17,991 bases of DNA from Candidatus Thorarchaeota archaeon. GTDB taxonomy: Archaea > Asgardarchaeota > Thorarchaeia > Thorarchaeales > Thorarchaeaceae. How positions within the stretch are numbered: position 1 is the stretch's first letter; every line of letters starts with the position of its first letter. The position numbers were made by a program, and so were the translations under genes. Positions 485-17,991 of the stretch are shown piece after piece. The stretch covers positions 1-17,991 of the forward strand of contig JAOUFI010000045.1 of the NCBI GenBank assembly GCA_029858305.1. The letters run 5' to 3'. The notes beneath the pieces were generated by a model. The model did no database searches, was not told where the DNA came from, and saw only the letters and a program-made list of their open reading frames with translations.

Positions 485-487
485 ATC

Positions 488-1945: not shown

Positions 1946-2057
1946 GCGAATACCTCACTATGAATATTAGGAAGGACAGGTGCAAGATGAGCCCGACAAT
2001 ACATAAATCTATTCGCGGAATGGACCAACCAATGTTTGGGACCTAGAAGGCAATGAT

Positions 2058-2894: not shown

Positions 2895-3631
2895 ACATCC
2901 TGAAGATAACCCATTGCTTGGAGTTGAACAAATAGCTCGGCACCAAAGTGCCAGCTAGAATGTGAAGAGAATATAGAACAGCGAATCTTAGGTAGGAGTG
3001 GAGCTTCTAAAGCAGCTCTGAGAGTGCCAGCGAGATGGTGTGCAATCATCTCACCGTAGGCTGAAACCTGAGGGAGTGAATCTAAGAATCTTCGCTTGGT
3101 AGATTCCAAGGAGCCAGGTTTGTAATCGCTGATTTGGATTGCACCATCAATGTATCGTATCAGGTCAATATGACCAGTGATGCCATAGCGTTCTGACCAA
3201 ACTGGTACCTCGATTGCAATTGTGTTGGGATCGTGAATAAGGAAATCCTGCAGTATTCCATGATCTGCTGAGAAACTCAAATCGCTACGAGAACGGTGAT
3301 ATTCACGCAATTTAGTTACAAGTTCATCGTCAACTCTGCAGGTAATTGAGCCAATTCTTTCGAGTTGTTTTCTGAGTCCAACTTTCTTGGACTGGGGCAT
3401 ACTCACTAGGCGAAGTCTTGATGCTCTTGTGAACATAGGGTCCGAGAAGAGAGCCTCAGGTATCTTGCCTGACTGAATCGTCTTGAGATGAGCCCAGAGG
3501 GAGGCTAAATCGCCTGTCTGATTACCCAAGCGTATATGATTGGATGTATTCCACTGAAATGCGTAAGCAACCTTGCCATGTTGATAATCCCGTCGTACTA
3601 TGTCATCGGAACCTGTAGGCATATCCCTCAT
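2891..3631 (-). CDS. PD-(D/E)XK nuclease, RecB-like motif set
   Basis: EVPVW ... TGHIDL ... DYKP ... QVSAY correspond to the E, D, DxK and QxxxY motifs. Its stop overlaps the upstream gene's stop at CTAG 2891-2894. Confidence 0.8.
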   Translation of the reverse strand: MRDMPTGSDDIVRRDYQHGKVAYAFQWNTSNHIRLGNQTGDLASLWAHLKTIQSGKIPEALFSDPMFTRASRLRLVSMPQSKKVGLRKQLERIGSITCRVDDELVTKLREYHRSRSDLSFSADHGILQDFLIHDPNTIAIEVPVWSERYGITGHIDLIRYIDGAIQISDYKPGSLESTKRRFLDSLPQVSAYGEMIAHHLAGTLRAALEAPLLPKIRCSIFSSHSSWHFGAELFVQLQAMGYLQDV

Positions 3632-3646
3632 TGTTCAAGTCTGAAG

Positions 3647-3767
3647 TGGGACTTTTTAATCCACCGACATCTTTTATGATATCATTACTCATTTTTAAAA
3701 AATGTCTTATCAATAATCGCTGTTTACAGTTCTCATAAGTGAATGCCTTGCAACCATCAAAGTCCCA
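3647..3767. promoter_or_regulatory. Divergent promoter region with inverted repeats
   Basis: TGGGACTTT (3647-3655) and AAAGTCCCA (3759-3767) are inverted copies. Palindromes ATGATATCAT (3676-3685) and CATTTTT-A-AAAAATG (3690-3704). TATA-like T/A runs. Confidence 0.5.
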
Positions 3768-3812
3768 ATGTTTTTAATGTACAAACACAAGTCAGCACAT
3801 GGAGAGAGAAGA

Positions 3813-4109
3813 ATGACATACGCATTCATTGTCTTCTACCGGTTCCATCTCATGACTCCCGAGGAGGCTGGAAAAGCAAAGGAATTCTGGAGCGAGTTTG
3901 CAAAAGGGAGTTGGCCAGAGCAGTTGCCTATTATTGGAGATTACAAATATGCATGGGGCTCAGAGTGGAACGGATTCTTATTGATTGAGTCTGAAGACCC
4001 GCAGAGCTTTTTTGAGTTCTGGCCAATTTTTAGAGACAAGACTAGGTGGTACATAGAGAGCACTCGCACGATTGTGGCTATTAAAAGAGACACTAAAGAC
4101 TGGATGTAG
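3813..4109 (+). CDS. Small protein (98 aa), probable dimeric alpha/beta-barrel (DUF3303/GYD-like) fold
   Basis: ATG 3813 follows purine-rich GGAGAG and is preferred over the track start at 3768. The beta-alpha-beta-beta-alpha-beta pattern (IIGDYKYAWGSEWNGFLLIESEDPQSFFEF) suggests the fold. Family is inferred. Confidence 0.65.
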   Translation: MTYAFIVFYRFHLMTPEEAGKAKEFWSEFAKGSWPEQLPIIGDYKYAWGSEWNGFLLIESEDPQSFFEFWPIFRDKTRWYIESTRTIVAIKRDTKDWM

Positions 4110-4118
4110 CCTGCACAG

Positions 4119-4159
4119 AGATGAGAGGGGAGGCTCGATTTGCCTACCCCAAATCATCT
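4119..4159. terminator. GC-rich stem-loop between convergent genes (possible bidirectional terminator or 3' stabiliser)
   Basis: AGATGA-ga-GGGG-AGGC-tcgattt-GCCT-a-CCCC-aaa-TCATCT forms 14 Watson-Crick pairs and fills most of the 51-nt gap. Confidence 0.55.
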
Positions 4160-4160
4160 A

Positions 4161-4943
4161 CTATGAGGCGTTGTCGAGGAGCATTTTAATTATCCATCGG
4201 AAATCTTTCTCAAGAATTCCGTCTGATGTCTTGAAAACCATAATTGAAGAGTTATCATAGTTCACTGTGGTCTTGTACGGGGTGTTGCTAGGATAGATGA
4301 AGATTCCAGAAAACCTTGAGAGGGTTCCGCCATACATTCTTCCATAGTGACCCACCTCAGCTTTGTGCTGAAGCTTGTCGCCACGAAACTCTGCTTGCTT
4401 CAATTCTTTCTTCTCAACATCAATGTAAGCAATATGACTCACATTGATTTCCAGAGGCTTTGGTGGAGCTTCTGTGGGTTTTATCAATTTATCATAGATT
4501 GCTCTTCTGGCGTCCTTATCAATAAACAGAGGCTCAGCCACAATATCAGTCAGATCAATTAGAACCCTGCGAAATCTCATTGCTAACCGACCGGAACCTC
4601 TAATCTCCGCGATTTTATCATCTAGTCGGACAGTGATGTTTCCTCTTTCTATAGTCGTATACTTATTGTCAGTTCGCTCACCAGCTTCGTCGAATGCATG
4701 AGCAACGACATTGAAGGCTGCTGTAAAATCAGCGATAACAGTTTTTCCACGGGAGTCTATATTAGTAAAACCAGCCTTGGGATCCTTTTTTGCATCGAAA
4801 GGAGCCATCCCGCTGAAGATAGTAGCTAACTGAGCTCCAGTGAGTTTTTTGGCTGCTTCATCATTTAAGCTGAAGAGCCGAACAGATTGCCACAACCCGA
4901 GGGGGTTAATCCTGGATGGTGGTTTTGGTGTTTTTGCGCTCAA
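4161..4943 (-). CDS. Hypothetical alpha/beta protein (260 aa)
   Basis: Long ORF with TTG start after TGAGG. A TTTATA TATA-like box lies at about 5019-5024 on the minus strand. No family recognised. Confidence 0.75.
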   Translation of the reverse strand: MSAKTPKPPSRINPLGLWQSVRLFSLNDEAAKKLTGAQLATIFSGMAPFDAKKDPKAGFTNIDSRGKTVIADFTAAFNVVAHAFDEAGERTDNKYTTIERGNITVRLDDKIAEIRGSGRLAMRFRRVLIDLTDIVAEPLFIDKDARRAIYDKLIKPTEAPPKPLEINVSHIAYIDVEKKELKQAEFRGDKLQHKAEVGHYGRMYGGTLSRFSGIFIYPSNTPYKTTVNYDNSSIMVFKTSDGILEKDFRWIIKMLLDNAS

Positions 4944-5165: not shown

Positions 5166-5259
5166 TGAGAAGTACCTCATCGATGAAGCAAAAGGATGAT
5201 ATTGGTGTTGCTTGCTCGAAGAATTCAGAAAGGAAGCAGTTGTATATGAGGATGAATTA

Positions 5260-5727
5260 ATGAGAGTCCTATTCGTTCTTGGCTCCGGCGGGCATACTGC
5301 AAGAGGTCTTATCCTTAGTAATCAAATCAGGGCTGAGAAGAGCTTTATTGTTCCATGGGAGTCTGAAGTGACAAAGAAAAAAGTGCAGAGGAACTACTTC
5401 AGTGTCCTCTCACCACGATTTAGGGCAAAGGACAACGTGCTTATGACTGTTCTCAGAACCCTCATTCTGTTCCTTCATAGTCTTCTGATTCTACTTGTCG
5501 TTAGGCCAAAGGCAGTGATAAGCACAGGCTCAGGACTCACTATCCCACCATTCCTGATTGCGAAATTTCTTAGAATCAAGACAATTTACATTGAAAGTCC
5601 TAGTCGAGTTTATAGACCATCAATTGCAGGGAAACTTCTCATTGGAAAAGTCGACTTGTGGTTGAGTAGCTGGCCAGAACTTGCAGAAAGGTATAAGGGA
5701 GTTGAATACAGGGGGATGGTGTTTTGA
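5260..5727 (+). CDS. alg14: Alg14-like acceptor-binding subunit of a split GT-B (Alg13/14, PssD/CpsF family) glycosyltransferase
   Basis: VLGSGGHT, RPKAVISTGSG and YIESPSRV..PS.AGK motifs, plus an internal hydrophobic helix. ATG 5260 after GAGGATG is preferred over the track start at 5212. Confidence 0.9.
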   Translation: MRVLFVLGSGGHTARGLILSNQIRAEKSFIVPWESEVTKKKVQRNYFSVLSPRFRAKDNVLMTVLRTLILFLHSLLILLVVRPKAVISTGSGLTIPPFLIAKFLRIKTIYIESPSRVYRPSIAGKLLIGKVDLWLSSWPELAERYKGVEYRGMVF

Positions 5728-6179
5728 TCTTTGTCACCGTGGGCACTTCACTCCCACATGATGAACTTGTAGAAATGATGGACAGATTAGTAGGTGACGG
5801 AAAAATCAAGGATAAGGTTATCGTACAACGGGGAGCAGGGAAATATGCTCCAAAAAACATCGAACACTTTCGATTTTCACCAAGTCTGGATGAGTATTAT
5901 AATAATGCGGAGATCGTAATCAGCAACTGCGGTGCTGGAACAATCATGGAAAATACAACAAAGGGTCGTAAGTTAATAGTTATCCAGAATCCCGATATCA
6001 TTGGAGGTCATGAGTGGGAACTCGTGACAAAGATGGAGAAGGGCAAACACTTGATCTGGTGCAAAGATATCACTCAACTATTGTCTTCGATTGAAAAGGC
6101 GCAGACAATAGAATTTAGACAGTTCAAACCAAAGCAGCTTAACCTTTCTGAGATATTAAAAGAAATTACTTCTTCGTGA
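5724..6179 (+). CDS. alg13: Alg13-like nucleotide-sugar-binding subunit (GT28 C-terminal domain)
   Basis: MIFVTVGTS, IVQRG, VISNCGAGTI and NP...HEWEL motifs. The TTG start overlaps the alg14 TGA (TTGA coupling). Confidence 0.9.
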   Translation: MIFVTVGTSLPHDELVEMMDRLVGDGKIKDKVIVQRGAGKYAPKNIEHFRFSPSLDEYYNNAEIVISNCGAGTIMENTTKGRKLIVIQNPDIIGGHEWELVTKMEKGKHLIWCKDITQLLSSIEKAQTIEFRQFKPKQLNLSEILKEITSS

Positions 6180-6254
6180 TAGCAATAGTCATAGAACAGC
6201 AACTTCCGCTGATTACTTATAGAGGAGATACTCAGGTCAAAATGAGGTTCAATC

Positions 6255-7679
6255 ATGACTGTCGTTAAAGCCGCTGCAAGTCACCAACTCTATGATGAGC
6301 TGGTGGCCATTGTTGGACAAGAACGAGTGAACGATAATCCAGTTATAATCTCAGCTTATTCTAAAGATGCGTGTCATCTTGAAGCAGAAAGACCAGGGAT
6401 TGTAGTAATGCCGAACAGTGTTGAGGAAGTCCAGAAGATTGTAAAACTCTGTGCGAAAACTAAATCTCCAATTATGCCCTCAGGAGGAAGAAATGGTATC
6501 TGTGGAGCCTGTTTGCCAAGAGTTCCGAATGCTGTGATGCTCGATATGGTTAACATGAAGAAACTTGTCAAACTAGACGAAGATGTAATGACTGTCACTG
6601 TTGAATCTGGAATGAGATGGGCAGAGCTCATCCATATCCTTGATAACCATGGATACAAACTTGGCTTTCGTGGGCCCTATGGTGGAAATGCGGCTACTAT
6701 TGCGGGGTCTGTAAGCATCAACAGTATGGGATACGCAGCATCGAAATTTGGACCAGCTCCTGAAGGAGTAGTGTCATTAGAGGTTGTACTACCAAGCGGA
6801 GAAATAGTAAGGACAGGATCTGCATGGAATAAGGATGCACAGGTGTTTACTAGATATTCATCCTTTGCTGATCTTACTGGTATCTTTCTGGGAGATCATG
6901 GGACACTAGGTGTAAAAACAAAGTTAACACTCAAGATTTATCCAAATGCCCCATTTTCTTCTTATATTGACTTGGGATTTACTAACCTTGAAGATGCAGC
7001 TATTGCTTTTCTGGAGATTCAAAAGAGAGGATTGACGGAAGAGCTGAATTGTCTTCTAGCCAGAGAGTCTGCAGACACTTACTTCCCGGGCTTATTAGAT
7101 AGCCATCCTGGAATAAACGCGACAATTCATAGTGTGATTATGGAAACAGACCAACAGCTTGCTGAGAGAAAGGTGCAGATAATACGAGAGATCGGACAGG
7201 AATTGAAAGGCAAAGACCTTGGGAACTTCGCAGCTCAAATACATTGGGCAGAGAAGTTCAATGAAGTACAACCTATGTACAACAATGGTTTTTGGTTGAA
7301 TACTTGTCACCTAAGACCAATAGTACGTCTTCCAGAACTTATGAAACGCATGCGCACAATTTTCAAGAAGTATAATCTTGAGAAGAACGGGATAAAATGG
7401 ATTGCAGATGCTCTTGCTGTAGATAGAGCGTATACTGCAGCTTGGGTGACAATATTTGCGCCAACTCGAGATAAGATGGAGTTGGCTGAGAAAGCATGGA
7501 ATGAGATGCTTGACGCAGCTATAGAAACTGGAGGGTGCCCCTATTGGAATGGACTACTTTGGGAGAATCGTACTTTAGAGAAAGTAGAAGAGAACTTCAT
7601 ACAACTCTATAGAACACTAAAGAACGCCATAGATCCAGACAATATCATGGCACCTAATGTGTTTGAGGGAGGTTACTAA
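6255..7679 (+). CDS. FAD-binding oxidoreductase, VAO/PCMH (GlcD/D-lactate dehydrogenase-like) superfamily
   Basis: PGIVVMPNSVEEVQKIV, ATIAGSVS, LEVVLPSGEIV, DLTGIFLGDHGTLG and LKNAIDPDNIMAP motifs. SD GAGGT. Confidence 0.9.
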   Translation: MTVVKAAASHQLYDELVAIVGQERVNDNPVIISAYSKDACHLEAERPGIVVMPNSVEEVQKIVKLCAKTKSPIMPSGGRNGICGACLPRVPNAVMLDMVNMKKLVKLDEDVMTVTVESGMRWAELIHILDNHGYKLGFRGPYGGNAATIAGSVSINSMGYAASKFGPAPEGVVSLEVVLPSGEIVRTGSAWNKDAQVFTRYSSFADLTGIFLGDHGTLGVKTKLTLKIYPNAPFSSYIDLGFTNLEDAAIAFLEIQKRGLTEELNCLLARESADTYFPGLLDSHPGINATIHSVIMETDQQLAERKVQIIREIGQELKGKDLGNFAAQIHWAEKFNEVQPMYNNGFWLNTCHLRPIVRLPELMKRMRTIFKKYNLEKNGIKWIADALAVDRAYTAAWVTIFAPTRDKMELAEKAWNEMLDAAIETGGCPYWNGLLWENRTLEKVEENFIQLYRTLKNAIDPDNIMAPNVFEGGY

Positions 7680-7680
7680 A

Positions 7681-9258
7681 ATGGCGAAGGTAAACTTTCC
7701 CAATCTAGAACCTTTTAAAGACGAACTATGGCTCTGTGGAAGGTGCGGTGACTGCTCCCTTGCAGACAAGATTGTAGCATCAGACCGTGGAGTAAATCAT
7801 CCATGTGGCGTGAAGAATGTTCTAGGATTTGAAACATATTCTGCCAAAGGACGCATAATGGTAATCAACGATATACTAGATGGTAATCTTGAGATTAATC
7901 AGGACATTGTTGACCTAGCCTATGCGTGCAATATATGCAAGAATTGCCAAGAAACATGTATGGCAACAGCTGACGGTATAAGAATTCCTGATATGATGGA
8001 AGCTCTCAGGAAAGATCTCGTTGCTAATGGATTCTCAGTTCAAAAGCATGAAGAAATAGAGAATTCAATCATTAACGAGTTCAATCCATACAAGGAAACT
8101 AAGGATTTCAGATTGAAGGTTTTCGGAGACCGTGAATTCCCAGAGAAAGCAGAGGTCGTCTATTTCACCGGTTGTACGAGTTCTTACCGTGAGAAGGAGA
8201 TTGCTGTTACAACAGTCGAATTGTTAAGTAAAATCGGAATCAACTACACAGTCCTGCCTGATGAACGATGCTGCGGATCTATTCTATTGAGATTGGGTCG
8301 TGAGAAGATATTTGGTGACCTTACTAAACACAATATTGAGTCCATCAAACGTACAGGCGCGAAGATGGTTGTCACAGCATGCGCAGGTTGTTATCGAACA
8401 TGGAAGATTGATGTCATCGAAGCTGGATACAAGTACGACTTTCAGGTATTACACATCACAGAATTTCTTGATGAATTGATTTCAAAAGGTGTTGCTTCTT
8501 TTGAATTGGAAGATAGATTACGTGTTACATACCACGATCCATGTCATCTTGGCAGGCATTCCGAGGTCTATGAGGCACCACGACGTGTGATAGAGTCTAT
8601 AGGAAATGTAGAGCTAGTTGAGATGACTACAAACAAAAGATATGCTCACTGTTGCGGTTCCGGCGGTGGATTGAAAGGAACTTATGGAGACCTAGCAAAT
8701 GAAGTGGCAGGAAATAGAATAAGAGAAGCAGAAGAAACTGGAGCTGAATTCTTGCTCACAGCATGCCCATTTTGCTTTCGAGGACTTAAAGATGGAGCCA
8801 GGCATATTGGAAGTGACATCAAGGTTCTTGATCTACCAACATTCCTTCTCGATACAAAAATCAGCAAGAGTATGAAGAGAGTAAAAGAAGAACCGTTGAA
8901 GCTGAAATTCATGGAATACCTTGCAAATCATCCGATGATCTTTGATGGATTAAAGAAAGGTGCAATAATAGAATATGAAATAGAAGATAGTCGATTCCAT
9001 ATTGAAGTCACTGGAAAGAGAGAAATCATTGCAAATCCTCAACGAGCTGATAATCCTGATGTTGAATTGATGTTTTCACCAGCAGCAGTGACCACACTTG
9101 TCACATTTGACTCCGAAGACAAGTATGCAGAGCAGTTTGGCAAGTTTTTCAAAGAACCAACAGACCTCGAGTGGATCAGGTTCAACCTACGATTGAACAT
9201 CGTCAAACTATTAATGAAGGGCTATAGAAAGTTCGCACAGAAAGCAGGACTGATATAA
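7681..9258 (+). CDS. Fe-S oxidoreductase (GlcF/GlpC/HdrD-like: two 4Fe-4S motifs plus two CCG domains) with a C-terminal SCP2-like extension
   Basis: CGRCGDC...PC, CNICKNCQETC, YFTGC, RCCG, TACAGC, YHDPCH, HCCGSGGG and TACPFC. About 120 extra residues follow CCG2. ATG 7681 follows GGAGGT, 1 nt after the flavoprotein stop. Confidence 0.88.
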   Translation: MAKVNFPNLEPFKDELWLCGRCGDCSLADKIVASDRGVNHPCGVKNVLGFETYSAKGRIMVINDILDGNLEINQDIVDLAYACNICKNCQETCMATADGIRIPDMMEALRKDLVANGFSVQKHEEIENSIINEFNPYKETKDFRLKVFGDREFPEKAEVVYFTGCTSSYREKEIAVTTVELLSKIGINYTVLPDERCCGSILLRLGREKIFGDLTKHNIESIKRTGAKMVVTACAGCYRTWKIDVIEAGYKYDFQVLHITEFLDELISKGVASFELEDRLRVTYHDPCHLGRHSEVYEAPRRVIESIGNVELVEMTTNKRYAHCCGSGGGLKGTYGDLANEVAGNRIREAEETGAEFLLTACPFCFRGLKDGARHIGSDIKVLDLPTFLLDTKISKSMKRVKEEPLKLKFMEYLANHPMIFDGLKKGAIIEYEIEDSRFHIEVTGKREIIANPQRADNPDVELMFSPAAVTTLVTFDSEDKYAEQFGKFFKEPTDLEWIRFNLRLNIVKLLMKGYRKFAQKAGLI

Positions 9259-9316
9259 TAGATACATATGAAGCAGATAATATTGTTTAGAGATTAATCG
9301 AGGAAGTGCTAAGTTG

Positions 9317-10129
9317 ATGGTAGACTACATTCTAATAACCAAGTTCTATAATGAACGACAACGTCTACCATCAATCATCGAGAATATCTCCAAGCAGACT
9401 TTAAGACCAAAAATATTCGTCTTCATCAACGATGGATCTAATGATGAAAGTGCAGACATTGCTGCTGAAACAGCAACAAAACTAGGTATCAAATTTGAGA
9501 TAGTATCAATGCCTCCAAAAGCAAAGGGTAACTTAGATACTCTTGGAAGAGCTTGGAACAAGACCCAACCTCTTTTGTTAAGGCTCCTGCAAAATATTCC
9601 ATATGTAGCAACTGTAGACGTAGATACCCGATTTCCCACGGATTATTTTGAAAATATGATTTCATTCCTTGAAGCACATCCAGATATCGGTGTTGTTGCT
9701 GGAGAAGTTACAGGCGAACCAAAACGTACTTTCCCTATGTTCACTGGTAAGGTATTTCGAGCTAGTATCATCAAGGGAATTCAGAAATATTGGGATATTT
9801 CTGCTGACTCCTTCATAAACGTGAAAGCACTCAGGATGGGATATAAGATTATAATACGAAAGGATATGAAAGTGGTGTCGCCTCCTACTCACCTCCATAC
9901 TTGGAAGGGGAGATTCAGGGCTGGGAGACTAGCGTATTATACAGGGACATCACTTGTTTATGTCATAATAAAAGGTATATCAAAGCATGATGCGCAGTAT
10001 CTTAGAGGACATTGGTCGGAAGTGTCAAGGGGAACTTGGCGTTGTGATGATAAAGACATTCTGGAATACTATGGAACATTACACAAAAGAAAGCTTACTC
10101 AAATCGTAAAAAGGACATTAAGATTATAA
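9317..10129 (+). CDS. GT2 (GT-A) glycosyltransferase, paralog 1
   Basis: ITKFYNE, INDGSND and DVD (DXD) motifs. ATG at 9317 (TTG at 9314 in the track). Confidence 0.88.
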   Translation: MVDYILITKFYNERQRLPSIIENISKQTLRPKIFVFINDGSNDESADIAAETATKLGIKFEIVSMPPKAKGNLDTLGRAWNKTQPLLLRLLQNIPYVATVDVDTRFPTDYFENMISFLEAHPDIGVVAGEVTGEPKRTFPMFTGKVFRASIIKGIQKYWDISADSFINVKALRMGYKIIIRKDMKVVSPPTHLHTWKGRFRAGRLAYYTGTSLVYVIIKGISKHDAQYLRGHWSEVSRGTWRCDDKDILEYYGTLHKRKLTQIVKRTLRL

Positions 10130-10171
10130 GAGTGGAGCATCTGCGGCTTCAATAACCAATCATCTACGTGT

Positions 10172-11128
10172 GTGCCCCCCGTGCTGAAGATTCTTGCAAT
10201 AACCGAATATTATAACGAGGTAGAAAACATACCAGGACTCGTAAAGAATCTCTCGTCCCAAACCCATGTGCCGGATTTGTGGCTGATCATCGATGATGGT
10301 AGTTCTGATAACTCAACTGAAGTCTTCATTGAAAATCTAGAGAAATTCAACATACCACATTTGCTCTATCGAATGCCTCCAAAGTCAAAACCTAATGCAA
10401 ATCTGAAAGGTAGGGCATTTACGAAAGTGGATATCCTGAACAATGAGTGGGTTCAACAGAATAAATTTGACTTTCTCATATTGATTGGCGCAGATACAAG
10501 ATTCCCTCCAACGTACATCGAACTTAGTACAAAAATCATGCATAAACTGCCCATATTTGGAGCACTCGGTGCTCGCATCCGCAATGAACCGGGTGGTTCT
10601 ACGCCTATGGGAACAGGCAAGATTGTTTGCTGGGATGTAGTTAAGGCAACATCAGGCAGATATTGGGATCTCGATCCAGATTCGCTTTGGAATTTGATAG
10701 CTACAAACATGGGCTACAAACTACTAATTATTTTAGATTTAGTAATCAATGTAACAAGACCAACGCATATGTATGCTCCTTCAGGATTCTATGACTATGG
10801 TAAGAGAGTGAAATATCTTGGATGGAATCTTTCATCAGCCCTTGCTTATTCAGCAATACTGTTTGTTAGAAGAACTCATCCACAACATTTCTTGCGCGGA
10901 TATATTCATTCACTCATTCGAGACAAGAATTGGCGATGCAACGACCCCGAAGTAGAAGAACACTTTAGCGTCAAACGAATGATTCAACGTTTGATTGGAG
11001 CTGTGCGAAGTCAAGATGAAGCTTTAATGACTCGTATTGGCATTGATAAGCAGAGGGAATCAGCTATTGACGAGGAATTTGTTCATCGAGCTGTTTCAAT
11101 AATTAGAAGTAAGATATCAAATCGGTAA
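10172..11128 (+). CDS. GT2 (GT-A) glycosyltransferase, paralog 2
   Basis: ITEYYNE and IDDGSSD motifs. The DXD position reads GAD. Start is uncertain (GTG 10172 or 10181). Confidence 0.85.
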   Translation: MPPVLKILAITEYYNEVENIPGLVKNLSSQTHVPDLWLIIDDGSSDNSTEVFIENLEKFNIPHLLYRMPPKSKPNANLKGRAFTKVDILNNEWVQQNKFDFLILIGADTRFPPTYIELSTKIMHKLPIFGALGARIRNEPGGSTPMGTGKIVCWDVVKATSGRYWDLDPDSLWNLIATNMGYKLLIILDLVINVTRPTHMYAPSGFYDYGKRVKYLGWNLSSALAYSAILFVRRTHPQHFLRGYIHSLIRDKNWRCNDPEVEEHFSVKRMIQRLIGAVRSQDEALMTRIGIDKQRESAIDEEFVHRAVSIIRSKISNR

Positions 11129-11150: not shown

Positions 11151-12518
11151 TCAATCAAACAATGGTGACACATCGGATTTAATGAAAGAAAGTTTACCGG
11201 TTGAGCTGGGGTCAATTTTTTCAACGGGTACAAAGTCTATTTTCATATCAGATCCGAGTGTTCTCTTCATCATCTTGATTAATTCAAAGACCTCAGATTC
11301 CGAATATTGAACATTCTTCACAACTTCTACTTTAATTTCAGATTCGGATACCTGGTGAACAAAGTATCTATCAAATCCTTGCACTTTCTGGAAAAGGTGA
11401 GGTATGAACTCACCTGCAATTGGTCGTCCGTCTGTCGTAGAAAGAAAGTCATGTGTACGACCTTCTACTTTGCCAATCGTAGAAAGACCTCTACCACATT
11501 TGCAACTCGAATTGTTGAAATTAAGAACATCCCCAATTTCGTATCGAATAAATGGCATTGCAAAATTGTCAAGATCTGTAAGTATTGCAGGAACTCGACC
11601 ATTTTTACTGTCTAACATCTTTTCATTTTCGACGATAACATGTTCATCAAACACATGATATGCCTTTTTTCGCTCACACTGCGCAGCAATCGATAATATC
11701 TCAGCAGCTCCATATTGATCAAATACATCAGCAGAAAGACCCGATTCTATTGTTGTTCTTAGATCAGCATAGAGCAATTCTGAAGTTGATTGAATGATTT
11801 TCACACCCGTAAAATCAAGCCCTTCAGATAATGCATATTTTGCCAGGACATATAGTCCAGAGGGATAACCTCTGAATATGCGAATTCCTAGTTTTCTCGC
11901 GTTATCAGAAATCTGTTTTGCCATATTCAAATCCAAATCAAATATTGGATAGAACTGAATTTTCTGGATTCGTTTTAGTGTATTGGATAGAATATCTTTT
12001 ACTGTTCCTTTTTTCAGGAAACCACCTAGTGACCCCCCGCCGATTTCAAATCGACCTTCTCCAAGTTTCATACCAGTCCATAGGTAGTATCGGTTCATCG
12101 CGCCCCAAGCCCAACTAAGCGTGTTTGCATCATTATAGAATTGTAGAGGTTCTCCTGTCGAGCCGCCAGTTCTATCCGATCTTCGCATTCTGGGAGTGTA
12201 ATTGGAAGCTAATAGCTCGTGTTTGAATTTTCGTACCTGTGGCTTTCTAAGTACTGGTAGTTTGGTTAGATCTTCTACATTCTTGATATCAGAAGGATGT
12301 AAATTTCTCTCCTTGAATATTCGTCGATAATATGGCACATGATCATAAGCGTGAGATACAAGTCGCCGGAGTTTTTCCTCCTGAAAATCACGAATCTCTT
12401 CCTGATTCCACCACTGACTGTCGCAAAGAAATTTTGTCTTTTCTACGAAGGAGGTTCCTCGAATTATATCCGCGATAGGTAGAACCACCTGAGAAACCAA
12501 TGTTCGTCTAATATCCAC
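11151..12518 (-). CDS. CapK-like / phenylacetate-CoA ligase family adenylate-forming enzyme
   Basis: HAYDHVPYYR, RTGGSTGEP, GYPS, DQYGAAE, PFIRYEIGD, EGRTHD and SSTGK motifs. GTG start after GGAGG. Confidence 0.9.
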   Translation of the reverse strand: MDIRRTLVSQVVLPIADIIRGTSFVEKTKFLCDSQWWNQEEIRDFQEEKLRRLVSHAYDHVPYYRRIFKERNLHPSDIKNVEDLTKLPVLRKPQVRKFKHELLASNYTPRMRRSDRTGGSTGEPLQFYNDANTLSWAWGAMNRYYLWTGMKLGEGRFEIGGGSLGGFLKKGTVKDILSNTLKRIQKIQFYPIFDLDLNMAKQISDNARKLGIRIFRGYPSGLYVLAKYALSEGLDFTGVKIIQSTSELLYADLRTTIESGLSADVFDQYGAAEILSIAAQCERKKAYHVFDEHVIVENEKMLDSKNGRVPAILTDLDNFAMPFIRYEIGDVLNFNNSSCKCGRGLSTIGKVEGRTHDFLSTTDGRPIAGEFIPHLFQKVQGFDRYFVHQVSESEIKVEVVKNVQYSESEVFELIKMMKRTLGSDMKIDFVPVEKIDPSSTGKLSFIKSDVSPLFD

Positions 12519-12882
12519 ATTGTATCCTCCAAATCAAATGAAATAGTTCTGTTTCCCATATCAAGATTTCCTGAAAAGGCAGTTTTGATTGCCTGTGATT
12601 TATGGAATCAATCTTTTTCTTCTTGCTCATTCAGGTATTGCTTGAAAGATGGATATCAGCACGATGAATATATCTTAAACTAATAATGCGTAGCTACAAC
12701 AAAACCAACTCATATGCACTACCAAGAATTGGTGATTCATCTACGTGCATAATCAGAAGAAATGTCGTAGTTATAATAATGCTTTTGAATCCATAGGAGG
12801 GATTTGGCCGAATCCTTTTTCAAGATTTCAAGATGCAAGTTTCAAGTGAACCAAAGTAGACAATTTAGAGAGGTTATAGAGA

Positions 12883-14304
12883 GTGTCGTGGGTTCAGGAT
12901 TTCATTGAGTTTCAGAGATTGGAGGATGAGCTCAATCTTTTCGATATTACAATACAGGGCGTAAAAGTCTGGGAACGTATCAGGTTTCAGATTTATTCAG
13001 CAATCGAAACGAGGATGCTTGATAAATCGTTTACTCATCAAAGAAAAAACAGATTTTCTCGATTAATAAGACTACTCAAGGCAATATTTTCTTTTAGGAG
13101 AAATCCTCGATTTGCACCTAAATCAGACATTATGTTTGTATGCAGTGCTCGGCGAGTACTTGAAAATGATGGCATGTGGTGGGATATATACACGGATCCA
13201 ATAACCCAAGAATTCGAAGTGACACCAATTGCTTTTGAAACTCATTTCAATAATCAACATTATGGACCTGAGAAGACTCCAAACCTTCGATATTTTGACT
13301 TCTTTGAAACAATAGCCTATCTTAAGAGAACTTTGGGAATAACCAAGATTACACTCGATTCGCGTGAAATTCAATTACTTGGAAATATTGCTGATGAGTT
13401 GAATAACAGATTCCAAACAAAACTGAAAATTGAATCTATCACACGCAGACTGTTGGAAGAACGAAAAGTAAGACTACCACAATATATTAGTTTACTAAAA
13501 AGGATTAAACCGAAAATAGTGGTTCTTGCTCAAGGATATTATTGGGAAGATATGATTGAGGCATGCAGGTTATTGGGAATAAAAACAGTGGAGCTGCAAC
13601 ATGGAGTAATATATCAATATCATGCAGCATACTCCTACGAAGGACACTCGCGAAGGAAAGATCAATTCGCAGATTACATCCTTTTATGGGGAGATTATTG
13701 GAAATCTAGCGTTGTATTTCCAATTCCTGAAGAGAGATCTGTCAGTGTAGGATTTCCATATCTTGAAAGTAAGAGAAATTCGCTCTCGGGTATAGAAAAG
13801 AAGCGGCAAATCCTATTCATATCTCAAGGGAATATTGGAGTGAAACTTTCGGAGTTTGCGGTCGCTGTAAGTGAAACCATTAGTCGCGAGTACAAAATTG
13901 TATACAAGCTGCATCCACAGGAGCAAATGGATTGGAGAGAAAAATACCCTTGGCTCGTTTCTAGTTCGATCGAAGTAGTAGATCCGTCAAAGATAACACT
14001 TCACGAGTTATTTGCAGAATCGGAAATACAAGTGGGAGTATGTTCCACAGCTCTCTTTGAAGGCCTCGCCTTTGGATTGAGAACATATGTTCTTGATGCA
14101 TCATGCGTTGAACTTATGAATCCTATAATCGAAAAAGGAATAGTAAAGAAAGTGTCTTCTCCAGAGGAGTTCTCGCGAGATATCAATCGAGACAGCAATA
14201 TGTCTTCATTCAACATCAATCTTGTGTTCAAAGATCATGCCACTGAAAACATCATCTCATTTCTTAGAGGATTATTGGATGAAATGCACCAATTAGTCAA
14301 TTAA
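12883..14304 (+). CDS. Putative GT-B nonulosonate (sialyl/pseudaminyl-like) transferase
   Basis: ELQHG, LWGDYWK, VGFPY, ILFISQ, YKLHPQE and STALFEGLAFG resemble CMP-sugar/CDP-polyol GT-B transferases with an HP motif. Adjacent to pseI. SD GAGGT with a GTG start. Confidence 0.6.
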   Translation: MSWVQDFIEFQRLEDELNLFDITIQGVKVWERIRFQIYSAIETRMLDKSFTHQRKNRFSRLIRLLKAIFSFRRNPRFAPKSDIMFVCSARRVLENDGMWWDIYTDPITQEFEVTPIAFETHFNNQHYGPEKTPNLRYFDFFETIAYLKRTLGITKITLDSREIQLLGNIADELNNRFQTKLKIESITRRLLEERKVRLPQYISLLKRIKPKIVVLAQGYYWEDMIEACRLLGIKTVELQHGVIYQYHAAYSYEGHSRRKDQFADYILLWGDYWKSSVVFPIPEERSVSVGFPYLESKRNSLSGIEKKRQILFISQGNIGVKLSEFAVAVSETISREYKIVYKLHPQEQMDWREKYPWLVSSSIEVVDPSKITLHELFAESEIQVGVCSTALFEGLAFGLRTYVLDASCVELMNPIIEKGIVKKVSSPEEFSRDINRDSNMSSFNINLVFKDHATENIISFLRGLLDEMHQLVN

Positions 14305-15342
14305 TTCCCACGAAAGAGGGGTTCCTTTCGTGATATGGTGTTTTGCTTTTCTTCCTAGAATATCATTAAGATATTTTGGTGCCAAGCCAAATGCAGGGCG
14401 GATTGACCTTACATTTTCATGAGTGAATACCGCTCCTTCTTCAATATCACAAATTGAAAATAATGATCTTGAAAATTCTCTGTTCCGTTTTATCTTTTCG
14501 CTCAGAGTGTAATCAACGGTTCCCAACGCTTCTTCAACTTCTCTTACTGACTTAACCATCATTTCAAATTCATGCGGTTCCAAAGAGAATGATGAGTCGG
14601 GTCCTCCTAGCGACCTATCAAAAATGATATGCTTCTCAATTAGACAAGCTCCAAGCGAAGCTGCAGCGATGGGGAGAGTGATACCTGATGTGTGGTCAGA
14701 AAGACCCACTAAGGTATTGAATTTTTTAGCAAGATCAGGCATTGTTCGGAGGTTGACCTCATTCATTGGAGTAGGATATGCGGATGTGCATTTCAAGAGG
14801 ATGATATCATCATTGCCTTTATTTCTGCATGCCTTCACAGCTTCTTCAATATCCTCTAAATATGCAATGCCAGTTGAGATGATGACGGGCTTCTTTTTTG
14901 ATGCTACGTATTCTATCAATGGAATGTCTGTGATTTCAAAAGAAGCAATTTTGTAAGCAGACACTTGCATATTCTCTAAGAAATTGACAGCAGTCAAATC
15001 AAAAGGTGACGAGAAACATTCTAAACCTAATTTTTCTGCATATTGCTTGAGCTTTGGCTGCCAATCCCATGGAGTGTATGCTTCTTCATAAAGCTCATAG
15101 AGAGTCTTTCCATCCCAGATAGTGCCTTGCTTTATTTGAAAATACTCATTATCACAATTGAGAGTGATTGTATCTGGCGTGTAGGTTTGAAGCTTGACTG
15201 CATCAGCTCCTGCCTTGTGAGCAGCTTCAATAGTTTTGATTGCAAGATCATAGTTTTGTAGATGGTTGGCAGAGAGTTCAGCGACAATAAATACAGGATT
15301 GCTTTCACCTATCAGACGATTACCAATCCGAATCTTTTTCAT
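14293..15342 (-). CDS. pseI: Pseudaminic acid synthase (NeuB family with SAF domain)
   Basis: AELSANH, KLQTYTPDTIT, KIASFEITD, LKCTSAYP, GLSDHT, IEKH, GGPDSSFSLEP and RSIRP motifs. ATG 15342 after GAGGT is preferred over the track start at 15384. Confidence 0.92.
   Translation of the reverse strand: MKKIRIGNRLIGESNPVFIVAELSANHLQNYDLAIKTIEAAHKAGADAVKLQTYTPDTITLNCDNEYFQIKQGTIWDGKTLYELYEEAYTPWDWQPKLKQYAEKLGLECFSSPFDLTAVNFLENMQVSAYKIASFEITDIPLIEYVASKKKPVIISTGIAYLEDIEEAVKACRNKGNDDIILLKCTSAYPTPMNEVNLRTMPDLAKKFNTLVGLSDHTSGITLPIAAASLGACLIEKHIIFDRSLGGPDSSFSLEPHEFEMMVKSVREVEEALGTVDYTLSEKIKRNREFSRSLFSICDIEEGAVFTHENVRSIRPAFGLAPKYLNDILGRKAKHHITKGTPLSWELID
14309..14332 (+). terminator. Perfect 8-bp hairpin just after the transferase stop, inside the 3' end of pseI
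   Basis: CACGAAAG-aggggttc-CTTTCGTG, with T-rich sequence shortly downstream. Confidence 0.35.
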
Positions 15343-15410
15343 TGTTATACCTCTTGAGGAAATCATCTCCACCGCACATCGCATTCTGTGCTTTCCCCTT
15401 AATGGATATT

Positions 15411-15435
15411 GGTATATTTAAATGGGTGTTGCAAC
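15411..15435. promoter_or_regulatory. Probable bidirectional promoter for pseI and pseF-B-C
   Basis: Symmetric TATA-like ATTTAAAT (15416-15423) and palindrome GTTGCAAC (15428-15435) lie between the divergent starts. Confidence 0.4.
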
Positions 15436-15470
15436 TTGAACGGTAGCAAGATCTACATGATGGAATTTGT

Positions 15471-16247
15471 ATGAAGTCTAAAATTGTTGCAGTAATTCAA
15501 GCAAGAATGAGATCATCAAGATTTCCAGGAAAACCCCTTGAAAAAATCGGAGAATGGTCGCTTATCGAACTAGTATTAAGACGAGTTAGTAAATCTTCCA
15601 AAATTGAGAAAGTTATTCTAGCCACTTCTTCAAATCCGAACGACGATATCTTAGCCACACATGTTGAGTCTTTAGGTTTTCCAGTTTTTCGTGGTTCAGA
15701 AAATGATGTTCTATCGAGATTCTATGAAGCTGCGAGAGAATATGAGCCCCTTGCCGTTGTCAGAATCACTGGAGACTGTCCTCTTATATCGCCGAGTCTG
15801 ATTGATTATGCGATTGAGAATTTTGCTGTTAAGAACGTCGATTATTTGACTATCTCAATAGGAGAAGAAAAGGAGCGAGCATATCCCAGAGGTTTTGATG
15901 TTGAGGTTGCGAGTTTTAAAGCCTTGACCGAAGCTGTGGAGAATGCTTCTAAACAGTATGAACGTGAACATGTTATGCCTTATCTGTATACACACAGAGA
16001 TAGATTCTCAATAGAATACCTGGATCCCTCTCCGGATGTTTCTAGACCAAGATATCGTTTATGTGTAGATACAAAGAAGGATTTAGAAGTAATCATGCGA
16101 ATATATGATTTTTTCAAAGGTAAATTGGTTGACATTGAATATAAAGAAATAATCAGCTTCCTCGATCGCAACCCGGATGTACACTTAATCAACCAGTCTG
16201 TTAAGCAAAAGCACTATACTGAATCGGACAAAAGAATAGTACAATAA
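15471..16247 (+). CDS. spsF: Acylneuraminate-type cytidylyltransferase (SpsF/PseF-like, CMP-nonulosonate synthetase)
   Basis: IQARMRSSRFPGK, GSENDVLSRF, RITGDCP, PRGFDVE, REHVMP and RLCVDT motifs. Confidence 0.9.
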   Translation: MKSKIVAVIQARMRSSRFPGKPLEKIGEWSLIELVLRRVSKSSKIEKVILATSSNPNDDILATHVESLGFPVFRGSENDVLSRFYEAAREYEPLAVVRITGDCPLISPSLIDYAIENFAVKNVDYLTISIGEEKERAYPRGFDVEVASFKALTEAVENASKQYEREHVMPYLYTHRDRFSIEYLDPSPDVSRPRYRLCVDTKKDLEVIMRIYDFFKGKLVDIEYKEIISFLDRNPDVHLINQSVKQKHYTESDKRIVQ

Positions 16248-16269
16248 GATTCAAATTACGAGTGTTGAT

Positions 16270-17361
16270 TTGTCACATGAGCTTGGTAAACTATTATCTG
16301 AGAGTGGATTTCTTTTGAATAAGTTTGAAAATGAAATTTGGGATTGCATACAAGGCAAAGTTGTTCTCATTACAGGAGGAACAGGATTCTTGGGGAGAAC
16401 ACTCACCTCTAGATTCCTTGAGTTCGAACCGCAATCACTTCGAATTTTTAGTAGAGATGAAGTAAAACATTTCCGATTCAATAATCAGTTTGAATCGCAT
16501 CCACACTTCGATTGCATTCGTAATCTTGTTGGTGATGTAAGAGATTATGACAGAATATCAAAGGCTATGGAAGACGTAGATGTAGTAATTCATGCAGCAG
16601 CTCTAAAAAGAATCGATATGATAGAATACAACGTTGCCGAATCAATCAAAACAAACATTTTAGGGACACTTAATGTAGCAAATGCAGCACTAAGAAATAA
16701 TGTGGGCAAGTCCCTATTTGTTTCAACAGACAAGGCATGTTCTCCACTAAATTCGTACGGCGCGTGCAAATTACTTGGAGAGAGAATATTCACAGAGATG
16801 AATTATAGTAAAGGAAAATCAAAATCAATTCTTAGTTCTGTTCGATATGGGAATGTTCTCGCTAGTACCGGATCTATTATTCCTTTCTTTAAAAACAAAA
16901 TAGAAGCTGGGGTATCTATCCCACTAACTCATCCAGAGATGACCCGGTTTATAATTTCAGCAGATGAAGCAGTGGATTTAGTTCTAAAAGATTTAGTGTA
17001 TAGTGTGGGCGGAGAAGTAATGGTACCATTTATACCATCAATGAAAATTGTGGATTTAATTGAAGTCATGAAAACATCTTTGGGTGCAGATAATGAAATT
17101 GTTAACATTGGTATAAGACCTGGTGAAAAGATTCACGAAGTTCTGATAAATGAATTTGAAATTCCTCTGACCTACAAGATTGATAATACCTTTGCAATAA
17201 CCTCACTAATTGAGAGATATCAAGATGGGACAAAAACGCCTATTTACAAATTAAAAGGAGAGAAGATGGACAATAGTAAGATGAGTGAATACTCATCTCG
17301 AAATCATCTCATCTCAAGACAGGAAATTGAGAAGTACCTAAATAAGTTCAATTTATTGTAG
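16270..17361 (+). CDS. pseB: UDP-GlcNAc 4,6-dehydratase (PseB/FlaA1-like SDR)
   Basis: TGGTGFLG, FSRDEVK, GDVRD, HAAALK, STDKA, YGACK, RYGNV, MTRF and GIRPGEKIHE motifs. Exact start uncertain (TTG). Confidence 0.85.
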   Translation: MSHELGKLLSESGFLLNKFENEIWDCIQGKVVLITGGTGFLGRTLTSRFLEFEPQSLRIFSRDEVKHFRFNNQFESHPHFDCIRNLVGDVRDYDRISKAMEDVDVVIHAAALKRIDMIEYNVAESIKTNILGTLNVANAALRNNVGKSLFVSTDKACSPLNSYGACKLLGERIFTEMNYSKGKSKSILSSVRYGNVLASTGSIIPFFKNKIEAGVSIPLTHPEMTRFIISADEAVDLVLKDLVYSVGGEVMVPFIPSMKIVDLIEVMKTSLGADNEIVNIGIRPGEKIHEVLINEFEIPLTYKIDNTFAITSLIERYQDGTKTPIYKLKGEKMDNSKMSEYSSRNHLISRQEIEKYLNKFNLL

Positions 17362-17371
17362 TGTGGCAAGA

Positions 17372-17991
17372 ATGAAGATACCTTATGGAAAACAGTGGAT
17401 AACTGAAGAGGATAAAGAAAAAGTGCTTGAGGTCCTTAAATCAGATTACCTGACGACGGGTCCTACTATTGCAGCATTTGAAGATGCATTTGCACGGTTT
17501 GTGGGTGCGAAATATGCCATAGCTGTAGCTAATGGTACAGCAGCACTTCATCTAGCAGCAAAAGCCTTGGACGTCCATTCTGGAACAGAAGTGATTACCA
17601 CTCCAATGTCGTTCGCAGCGACCTCGAACTGTATTTTATATAACTCCGGAACACCAGTATTTGCAGATATCACCAATAGAGGACTCATTCAACCTAGTGA
17701 GATTGAAACTAAGATAACTGAAAACACTGCAGGCATCATTCCTGTCCATTACATGGGATTGCCTGCAGAATTGGCGGAGATATCCAAGATAGCAAAAGAG
17801 AATGAACTTTTCGTTATCGAGGATGCATGCCATGCATTGGGTGCCAAGTATAGGGGTACTTCAATAGGAGATTGTGATTATTCAGATATTGCTGTTTTCA
17901 GCTTTCATCCTGTGAAACATATCACTACAGGAGAGGGAGGGATAGTTACAACTAACAACGAAGAAATCGCATCACGAGTTCGAATGCTACG
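17372..17991 (+). CDS. pseC: PLP-dependent sugar aminotransferase (PseC, DegT/DnrJ family), truncated by the window end
   Basis: Translated by hand, not in the ORF track: MKIPYGKQWITEED...LTTGP...NGTAALHLA...PVHYMG...EDACHALGA...SFHPVKHITTGEGG. The frame is open to 17991. Confidence 0.92.
   Translation, partial: MKIPYGKQWITEEDKEKVLEVLKSDYLTTGPTIAAFEDAFARFVGAKYAIAVANGTAALHLAAKALDVHSGTEVITTPMSFAATSNCILYNSGTPVFADITNRGLIQPSEIETKITENTAGIIPVHYMGLPAELAEISKIAKENELFVIEDACHALGAKYRGTSIGDCDYSDIAVFSFHPVKHITTGEGGIVTTNNEEIASRVRML

Follow-up and report, generated by a model that had tools for sequence, protein, structure and literature searches.

The stretch of DNA considered here, called the window below, is 17,991 nt of contig JAOUFI010000045.1 (GCA_029858305.1) from Candidatus Thorarchaeota archaeon. 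It carries two adjacent genes encoding a flavoprotein and an iron–sulfur (Fe-S) protein with CCG domains and a C-terminal domain, the tail, of the SCP2 fold. On a modest balance of probability we favour the reading that this pair is an O2-independent dehydrogenase acting on a hydrophobic substrate at the alcohol or aldehyde level, and that in the Thorarchaeia the pair has moved to the edge of a glycan island. This substrate class is suggested by the SCP2 fold, by an aromatic-rich site in the flavoprotein, by the constant company of an aldehyde dehydrogenase (ALDH), a second SCP2-like protein and a short-chain dehydrogenase/reductase (SDR) in relatives, and by the survival of the tail as a free protein. 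The initial annotation of the window had assigned the pair to glycosylation, together with the glycosyltransferase genes on either side of it. The source genome is 3.04 Mb and 88.9% complete. Loci fetched from relatives carry L numbers, and A1, A2 and A3 are the alignments of the CCG protein, the tail and the flavoprotein.

The flavoprotein (6255..7679, + strand) is a subunit of the vanillyl-alcohol oxidase/p-cresol methylhydroxylase (VAO/PCMH) fold that binds flavin adenine dinucleotide (FAD), with Pfam scores of 107.8 bits for FAD_binding_4 and 31 bits for FAD-oxidase_C. It was found to have the two-domain FAD_binding_4 plus FAD-oxidase_C fold of the VAO-family D-2-hydroxy-acid dehydrogenases, and its closest solved relative is mouse LDHD, matched over the full length with an E value of 2.5e-25. 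The structural model, with a predicted local distance difference test score (pLDDT) of 79, gave Foldseek template-modelling (TM) scores of 0.78–0.81 to LDHD, ∼0.75 to AGPS and 0.80 to vanillyl-alcohol dehydrogenase. A search of the ESM Atlas with the same fold returned generic FAD-oxidase clusters only. The protein scored far under the equivalog cut-offs for GlcD (TIGR00387, 132.7 versus 567.9 bits; NF008408, 74.2 versus 897), and the DprE1 model NF053785 gave 26.4 bits against a cut-off of 500, the match being confined to the FAD domain.

The active site of mouse LDHD is described in PMC10589216 as a metal triad of His398, His405 and Glu442, a catalytic His443 and a carboxylate-binding Arg347, and the alanine mutant of each of these five residues of the substrate and metal site is given there as dead. 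The positions of Arg347, His398, His405, Glu442 and His443 correspond to F335, W382 or I383, A396 or W397, W431 and N432 in the window protein, in a region where the alignment is of low confidence. The Arg position is Phe in all 36 orthologs and the Glu/His position is a PYW motif in 35 of the 36; counting the window protein, F335 is present in 37/37 and Y430 with W431 in 36/37. Across the 25 sequences of A3 the residues F335, Y430, W431, H330, W331, N336, Q339, N349, T350, C351, H352, R354, W397, W415, W436 and E437 are invariant, and the invariant site residues are identical in thorarchaeal and other orthologs. This conservation suggests a flavin site that is remodelled rather than destroyed. 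Because the Arg/His/His/Glu/His set is replaced, a plain D-lactate or glycolate enzyme appears unlikely, and the expectation of the initial annotation that the flavoprotein would be something other than such a canonical enzyme is borne out by the loss of all five residues. As a control, 29 other archaeal FAD partners of CCG proteins were aligned in the same way, and canonical LDHD motifs were seen in two of them (L028 and L096), both from Thermoplasmata and both with His..His and Glu-His motifs.

The window genome contains many related proteins. Searches of it gave 14 matches for the flavoprotein and 20 for the CCG protein, often side by side, and the tail was found in the window copy only; these matches lie on contigs C24, C93, C97, C98, C101, C141, C148 and C166, the window itself being on C23. 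When seven of the flavoprotein paralogs were aligned, none had the full LDHD motif set. One paralog (C166:56113-57492) has a His-rich loop, which we take to resemble that of AGPS, and sits between two CCG genes ∼3 kb from an ALDH gene. Pyrrolysine was considered for three CCG paralogs flagged by TAG codons and was dropped: in L015 the codon marks a gene boundary and the other two have no stop within the alignment.

The gene for the CCG protein lies on the + strand directly after the flavoprotein gene. The start codon at 7681, within an open reading frame (ORF) of 7657-9258, is the start used by the orthologs in A1. The Fe-S part (7681..8892) matches the Pfam family CCG (PF02754) in two stretches with 131.6 bits. 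The 14 sequences of A1 share ferredoxin-type motifs with invariant cysteines at 19, 22, 25 and 42 and at 83, 86, 89 and 93, followed by two complete CCG motifs with cysteines at 165, 197, 198, 234 and 237 and at 288, 324, 325, 362 and 365. This predicted layout is HdrD-like. The electron-transfer role that the initial annotation gave to the CCG domain fits such a subunit, all ten cysteines of the CCG motifs being in place. The protein fell below every named equivalog, the best being TfrB with 220.4 against 385 bits; for GlcF (72.4 versus 333), LdhH (144.1 versus 800), GlpC and HdrB it also stayed under the cut-offs. In the PDB it matches chains of HdrB and also 9ojn, an ‘iron-sulfur-binding reductase’ of 1042 residues, and its nearest named relatives are from Candidatus Thorarchaeota.

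A Lys-rich linker of ∼20 residues, disordered and with pLDDT <50, ends the Fe-S part and precedes the tail (8893..9258, residues ∼405-525). An AlphaFold model of the tail, made from 29 sequences, reached a pLDDT of 89.4. The top eight Foldseek matches to it were SCP2-type chains with probabilities of 0.99–1.00, led by human SCP2, UbiJ-SCP2 and Archaeoglobus AF1534 at 1.00, and a search with VIA, which is independent of Foldseek, gave Z scores of 9.2, 8.9 and 8.1 to SCP2 chains over 98–100 aligned residues at root-mean-square deviations of 2.9–4.2. The tail family is rare, with 20 matches at E ≤ 1e-3 among 1.84 billion representative proteins, mostly within proteins of 500–550 residues or as short free proteins. 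The last 30 residues (window 9169-9258), which include a last helix that is basic in the window protein, have a net charge of +5 to +7 in 9/9 thorarchaeal tails and of −6 to 0 in 14/14 others. This basic end looks like a lineage-specific change of surface that may perhaps serve in membrane docking. The non-thorarchaeal tails carry an acidic extension at their end, and the second SCP2-like paralog is basic in 6/6 cases.

Of 400 genomes searched in the phylum, 130 gave a match to the tail; the counts are 10 of 27 for the window's genus and 38 of 85 for its family, the last figure being an undercount because contig ends hide the pair (at 5 of 16 loci described below). It is fused, in frames of 520–590 residues, in eight further families. 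In the largest family, where 71 genomes were positive, it is in most cases a free gene of 150–175 aa. The named full-length matches are all from Asgard archaea, namely Thor-, Loki-/Promethearchaeota-type, Baldr-, Frey-, Njord-, Sigyn- and Atabey-lineages. In a FastTree phylogeny of the flavoproteins the orthologs formed one clade apart from the seven paralogs of the window genome, with each family a clade and the thorarchaeal clade on a long stem. The flavoprotein and CCG-SCP2 genes were adjacent in 36/36 loci where both were called, and also in L143 and L164, where tblastn located an intact flavoprotein gene. By these comparisons the pair is an Asgard-wide orthologous family.

The gene neighbourhoods were examined in 60 loci around the tail, 23 of them thorarchaeal, 17 non-thorarchaeal with a fused tail and 20 with a free tail. 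ORFs were called crudely, and neighbours were labelled by BLAST against the window proteins, by BLAST against the neighbours in other loci, and by Pfam and NCBIfam. Pfam coverage was 150 of 151 candidates in the thorarchaeal set and, in a second scan, 81 of 136 in the non-thorarchaeal set; this second scan left out neighbours that had been scanned earlier and all 16 candidates of L148 and L154, two loci nearly identical to L147 and L153. An ALDH gene was present within three genes of the tail gene in 15/17 fused and 20/20 free-tail loci. Within the same distance, a second SCP2-like protein was encoded in 11/17 and 18/20, and an extended SDR resembling HpnA, 3-beta-HSD and OleD in 5/17 and 18/20, respectively. 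The second SCP2-like protein matched the tail profile with an hhalign probability of 99.7%, a comparison that is partly circular, and the best NCBIfam models for the SDR were HpnA, SdmB and OleD, all under their cut-offs. Recurrence of this kind points to the ALDH, the second SCP2-like protein and the SDR as probable ancestral partners of the pair in the interconversion of hydrophobic alcohols, aldehydes and acids. In most genomes of the Loki type the flavin and Fe-S genes are gone and the tail gene lies between the SDR and ALDH genes. Since the free tail persists in this position, it would seem to be tied to the substrate of the pathway and not to the Fe-S chemistry.

One non-thorarchaeal family (L149, L150 and L151) has a true SCP2 (PF02036) and a family III CoA-transferase encoded beside the pair. 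There is also a gene for a YhhN-family membrane protein in L150 (4497-5219) and for a polyprenyl synthetase in L151 (12889-14025), each in that one locus. The YhhN family includes lysoplasmalogenase. These neighbours give a hint of ether-lipid or isoprenoid chemistry. Four Loki-type loci (L159 and L161–L163, 5.2–7.9 kb) contain genes for a thiamine pyrophosphate (TPP) enzyme of ∼575–580 aa, for transporters of the major facilitator superfamily and for a DOT1-like methyltransferase near the SDR, flavin, CCG-SCP2 and ALDH genes. The best NCBIfam match of the TPP enzyme, below threshold, was the acetolactate synthase large subunit; only the L161 copy was scanned and the L159 copy was labelled by BLAST.

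Taken together, a working model for the pair can be proposed, in which we infer that the two proteins would form a complex. The SCP2 domain would pick up a hydrophobic, lipid-like molecule and hand it to the flavin site, which would lack the metal- and carboxylate-binding residues of the 2-hydroxy-acid dehydrogenases and be lined by the invariant aromatic residues. The flavin would accept a hydride from a carbon at the alcohol or aldehyde level, and the electrons would presumably run from the flavin to the [4Fe-4S] clusters, from these to the CCG clusters and on to an acceptor.

The genes around the pair in the window are of a different kind. Upstream lie the two halves of a split GT28-like glycosyltransferase (GT), the Alg14/EpsE/PssD-type membrane-side half (5260..5727, + strand; PF08660, 63.1 bits, cut-off 27) and the Alg13/EpsF/PssE-type catalytic half (5724..6179, + strand; Glyco_tran_28_C PF04101, 53 bits, cut-off 22). 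These adjacent Alg14-type and GT28-C-type halves, both above their Pfam cut-offs, share 4 nt; against NCBIfam the scores were 107.7 bits for PssD, just below the cut-off of 110, and 120.3 bits for PssE, whose cut-off is 120. Downstream lie the GT2 family genes GT2a (9317..10129, + strand; PF00535, 45.3 bits) and its paralog GT2b (10172..11128, + strand; PF00535, 25.7 bits). The initial annotation gave these six genes in this order on one strand with gaps of −4, 75, 1, 58 and 42 nt, and this agrees exactly with the list of + strand ORFs (5212-5727 with an internal ATG at 5260, 5724-6179, 6255-7679, 7657-9258 with ATG 7681, 9314-10129 with ATG 9317, and 10172-11128) when the gaps are counted from the starts that it used. 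The TATA-like CTTATA that it noted in the 75 nt spacer (6180..6254) is at 6216-6221, 33 nt upstream of the ATG at 6255.

The typical order in the thorarchaeal loci is a five-gene block, Alg14/Alg13, the flavoprotein gene, the CCG-SCP2 gene and then a hypervariable glycan region containing GT4, GT2, PIG-L deacetylases, ATP-grasp proteins, UDP-GlcNAc 2-epimerase, flippases, PMT_2, sulfotransferases and Pse genes. In 19 of the 23 loci, which represent at least 12 genera, Alg14/13 are no more than three genes away from the pair. The four exceptions are L130 and L146, which are cut by contig ends, L141, which has no Alg14/13, and L164, which ends 1.2 kb past the flavoprotein gene. The co-orientation of six genes seen in the window does not hold as a general rule. 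In 15 of the 19 loci the Alg genes and the pair point away from each other, with spacers of 22–215 nt as judged from crude ORF starts, and they are co-directional only in L128, L137, L140 and L145 and in the window. Because the flavoprotein gene runs opposite to Alg14 in the divergent loci, it must be driven in them from a promoter of its own. Further glycan genes, apart from Alg13/14, lie beside the CCG gene in 20/23 loci, the fetched stretches of L136, L144 and L164 having none. In L130, L133, L134, L135 and L137 a homolog of GT2a directly adjoins the CCG gene; by BLAST the relatives in other loci match both GT2a and GT2b.

Genes for PIG-L deacetylases occur near CCG-SCP2, often with a PylC-like ATP-grasp protein and a small haloacid dehalogenase (HAD) hydrolase, in L127, L128, L132, L133, L139, L140, L142, L143 and L146, and the PIG-L gene directly adjoins CCG-SCP2 in L128, L140 and L146. 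L164 has the ATP-grasp and HAD genes only, and the window has none of this PIG-L, ATP-grasp and HAD set.

Outside the Thorarchaeia these associations were not seen. BLAST found no relative of the window Alg14, Alg13 or GT2 proteins in the 17 non-thorarchaeal fused loci, and no glycosyltransferase family was present among the neighbours in the 15 of these loci that were scanned with Pfam. The initial annotation had proposed synteny with GT genes across archaea as a check; such synteny is seen within the Thorarchaeia, where Alg14/13 and the glycan island accompany the pair, and not beyond them. It had also named in advance, as the observation that would speak against its proposal, orthologs usually unlinked to glycosylation genes, and this is what was seen outside the Thorarchaeia, so that membership of the pair in glycosylation is not supported in the form proposed.

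The converse, Alg13/14 without the pair, was also looked for. Alg13 is nearly universal in the family, being present as a single copy in 66/86 genomes and found in 22/23 of the high-quality ones, and 16 Alg13 loci were inspected from genomes in which the tail search had found nothing near Alg13. The flavoprotein gene was cut by a contig end in five of them, two were uninformative, one had Alg13 away from the pair and one had a remnant. Seven had Alg13/14 without the pair, and four of these (L196, L197, L202 and L203) had homologs of GT2a/b beside Alg13/14. This occurrence of the Alg13/14 and GT2 set without the dehydrogenase in relatives suggests that the pair is dispensable for Alg13/14. The remnant, in L194 (G320:C1, ∼8450-9283), comprises only residues 1-278 of the flavoprotein beside Alg14/13 with no CCG gene, in a single-contig genome that is 86% complete by markers, and by its sequence it is a decayed remnant of the pair.

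It could be argued that in the Thorarchaeia the pair is nevertheless part of a glycan-assembly complex which oxidises or remodels a polyprenyl- or dolichyl-linked sugar, its carrier lipid or a glycolipid, with the SCP2 tail holding the isoprenoid chain. The adjacency to Alg14/13 has survived inversions, with 15 divergent and four co-directional arrangements, the short divergent spacers are compatible with a shared control region and glycan genes flank the CCG gene in most loci. The basic last helix of the tail would suit a membrane surface and the thorarchaeal clade is on a long stem. In addition, the ancestral partners were not found in the Thorarchaeia: a search with the second SCP2-like protein as query found nothing in 86 genomes of the family, and the best ALDH match in the window genome is only 30% identical. 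The shift in this lineage, with the ALDH and second carrier gone, a basic last helix, a long stem and persistent adjacency to Alg14/13, is real. However, glycosylation genes were not found in the non-thorarchaeal fused loci (BLAST in 17, Pfam in 15), and thorarchaeal and other orthologs do not differ in the invariant residues of the site, so the chemistry is probably that found in the ALDH context. Furthermore, the pair is lacking from seven thorarchaeal relatives that have Alg13/14, of which four carry GT2a/b homologs next to these genes, the tail was found in fewer than half of the family genomes (some being hidden by contig ends), and L136, L144 and L164 keep the pair in stretches with no glycan genes apart from Alg13/14. 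Similarity to DprE1 is negligible, and synteny within a single family may be inherited gene order. We therefore consider such a complex unlikely, a lipid-linked sugar or carrier being a possible substrate in the Thorarchaeia. A narrower version, in which the thorarchaeal pair was recruited to the Alg13/14 locus for the polyisoprenoid carrier and would perform an O2-independent redox step between polyprenol and polyprenal (or on dolichal), is a long shot. It would be just as speculative to see in this step, were the recruitment true, an archaeal counterpart of the revised eukaryotic dolichol pathway, which in outline runs via aldehyde intermediates (10.64898/2026.04.22.720056). PMC8993221 reports the Alg13 of Thorarchaeota to be the sister of eukaryotic Alg13. 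A search of the window genome for a polyprenal reductase of the eukaryotic type (PF02544) found none, though at 88.9% completeness this absence is no proof.

Several observations weigh against a hydrophobic substrate, and some of them would fit a small-molecule route in which a lactate- or glycolate-type 2-hydroxy-acid dehydrogenase, like GlcD/GlcF or Dld-II, follows a lactaldehyde-type ALDH and the tail is a structural or oligomerisation module. The closest solved or curated relatives of the flavoprotein are LDHD, D-lactate dehydrogenase, LctD and GlcD, and its fold resembles LDHD, AGPS and vanillyl-alcohol dehydrogenase alike and does not discriminate among the three. The ALDH neighbour has lactaldehyde dehydrogenase as its best NCBIfam match, at 240 bits against a cut-off of 650, and genes for fucose isomerase and an FGGY kinase are near the pair in L158 and L152. 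A non-canonical site is common, being found in 27/29 of the other archaeal FAD partners of CCG proteins, and is not specific to the SCP2-linked clade; the invariant H330, H352 and R354 could still bind an acid. Nor is the tail an SCP2 domain by sequence. It has no Pfam match, PF02036 included, up to an E value of 10, and its hhalign probability against the three true SCP2 neighbours is an insignificant 0.2%, so that the ‘SCP2-like tail’ of the initial annotation is upheld by fold (AlphaFold, Foldseek and VIA) and not by sequence. The fold itself is no proof of lipid binding, since the searches also returned Eis acetyltransferases and the methyltransferases MycE and SpnK, and among the enzymes matched by fold some have SCP2-like domains with non-lipid roles. 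Against a small-molecule route, all five metal and substrate residues of LDHD are replaced throughout the family, the GlcD and GlcF scores are far below their cut-offs, and a water-soluble substrate would hardly account for the two to three SCP2-type proteins per locus or for a free tail kept beside the SDR and ALDH once the flavin genes are lost. This route therefore appears rather improbable. It is also conceivable that the tail serves the acceptor side, either by binding an electron acceptor that is lipophilic, for instance a quinone-like isoprenoid, or by anchoring a soluble complex at the membrane, where the CCG clusters could reduce a membrane carrier. In some dehydrogenases the CCG subunit does hand electrons to quinones, the tail is attached to the Fe-S subunit and not to the flavoprotein, its last helix is basic in the Thorarchaeia, and its best fold matches include UbiJ-SCP2, which its PDB title describes as a ubiquinone-synthesis protein. 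Yet the free tail of the Loki type stays with the NAD(P)-type SDR and the ALDH after the Fe-S subunit has been lost, and MqnA/MqnD (PF02621), the only family searched for, was not found in the window genome, an absence that in a genome 88.9% complete is again no proof. An acceptor-side role is thus very improbable, and the dehydrogenase of hydrophobic alcohols or aldehydes is the reading that we retain.

Dehydrogenases of the GlcD/GlcF and Dld types with FAD and Fe-S subunits are known, as are SCP2 fusions on other enzymes with hydrophobic substrates. The GlcD/GlcF pairs, the Dld-type GlcD plus HdrD-like pairs of archaea and sulfate reducers and the fused YdiJ resemble the window in having a FAD_binding_4/FAD-oxidase_C gene beside a protein with two ferredoxin and two CCG motifs, and an O2-independent exit of electrons via Fe-S clusters is expected in both. 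The window pair differs from them in its replaced site, its equivalog scores and the SCP2-fold domain on its Fe-S subunit, a feature present in none of the solved or curated relatives returned. SCP2 domains are found on the hydrophobic-substrate enzymes MFE-2 (SCP-2L) and the alkylsulfatases SdsAP and YjcS, and in UbiJ. The window protein likewise has a C-terminal alpha/beta SCP2 fold which, in the model, would be compatible with an alkyl or isoprenoid chain, but it has no detectable sequence relation to PF02036, is fused to an HdrD-like partner, is rare and is confined to Asgard archaea among the named matches. No description of an HdrD-like subunit joined to an SCP2-fold domain came up in literature searches. 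A preprint on lipid transfer in Asgard archaea deals with START domains and counts only one InterPro SCP-2 homolog in strain MK-D1.

Other members of the flavoprotein superfamily show partial parallels. p-Cresol methylhydroxylase and the 4-alkylphenol oxidoreductases combine a VAO flavoprotein, a separate electron-transfer subunit and an ALDH, as the non-thorarchaeal loci do, and act on hydrophobic substrates; the proteins of the p-cresol pathway are PchF, PchC and PchA. Only the FAD domain of the window flavoprotein (residues ∼34-250) aligns with PCMH/VAO, and its partner is a CCG Fe-S protein and not a cytochrome. AGPS, the alkyl-dihydroxyacetone-phosphate synthase, is the member of the FAD-oxidase_C branch that acts on lipids, namely long-chain ones, and it has the same fold as the window flavoprotein, but the two sequences resemble each other only across the FAD domain (E 2.4e-19). 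AGPS catalyses a redox-neutral reaction and works without an Fe-S partner. DprE1, a VAO-superfamily flavoenzyme acting on a polyprenyl-linked sugar, forms the decaprenyl-phospho-ribose oxidase that works with the SDR DprE2. The window flavoprotein is unlike it, with the low score given above and a C-terminal domain of another type, and there is no DprE2-like partner in the window.

The remainder of the window is in keeping with the thorarchaeal order. The glycan island extends beyond 11128 to the end of the window (11151..17989, both strands) and encodes, by Pfam and NCBIfam, a PaaK/F390-synthetase-like ligase (−), a polysialyltransferase-like/BFO_1060 GT (+), PseI (−), a cytidylyltransferase (+), PseB (+) and PseC (+), the last four making up a pseudaminic-acid gene set. 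The scores were 502.8 bits for PseI (cut-off 340), 328 bits for PseB, 273 bits for PseC, a partial protein truncated by the window end, and 120.5 bits for CTP_transf_3 in the cytidylyltransferase, which is PseF-like. The polysialyltransferase-like/BFO_1060 GT is probably the transferase for a nonulosonic acid. On the other side of the pair, positions 38-4943 hold the five-gene block, which encodes an unknown protein of 148 aa, a 485 aa coiled-coil protein with a C-terminal helix-turn-helix, a transglutaminase-like protein, a PD-(D/E)XK nuclease-like protein and an unknown protein of 260 aa; the last gave no Pfam or NCBIfam match. The order of this block is kept beside Alg14/13 in most thorarchaeal loci.

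Few redox modules of the Asgard archaea have expanded as much as the pairs of flavin and CCG Fe-S proteins, and few are so poorly understood; the SCP2-tethered clade offers a testable handle on the substrate class of one of them, be it ether lipids or hydrophobic alcohols or aldehydes. The clade also points to redox reactions of lipids under anaerobic conditions in those prokaryotes that are most closely related to the eukaryotes. If the move of the pair beside the eukaryote-like Alg13/14 in the Thorarchaeia proves to be functional, it would bear on how a dolichol-type carrier or glycolipids may be made without O2. If it does not, it would serve as a caution that gene neighbourhood within a single family can mislead.

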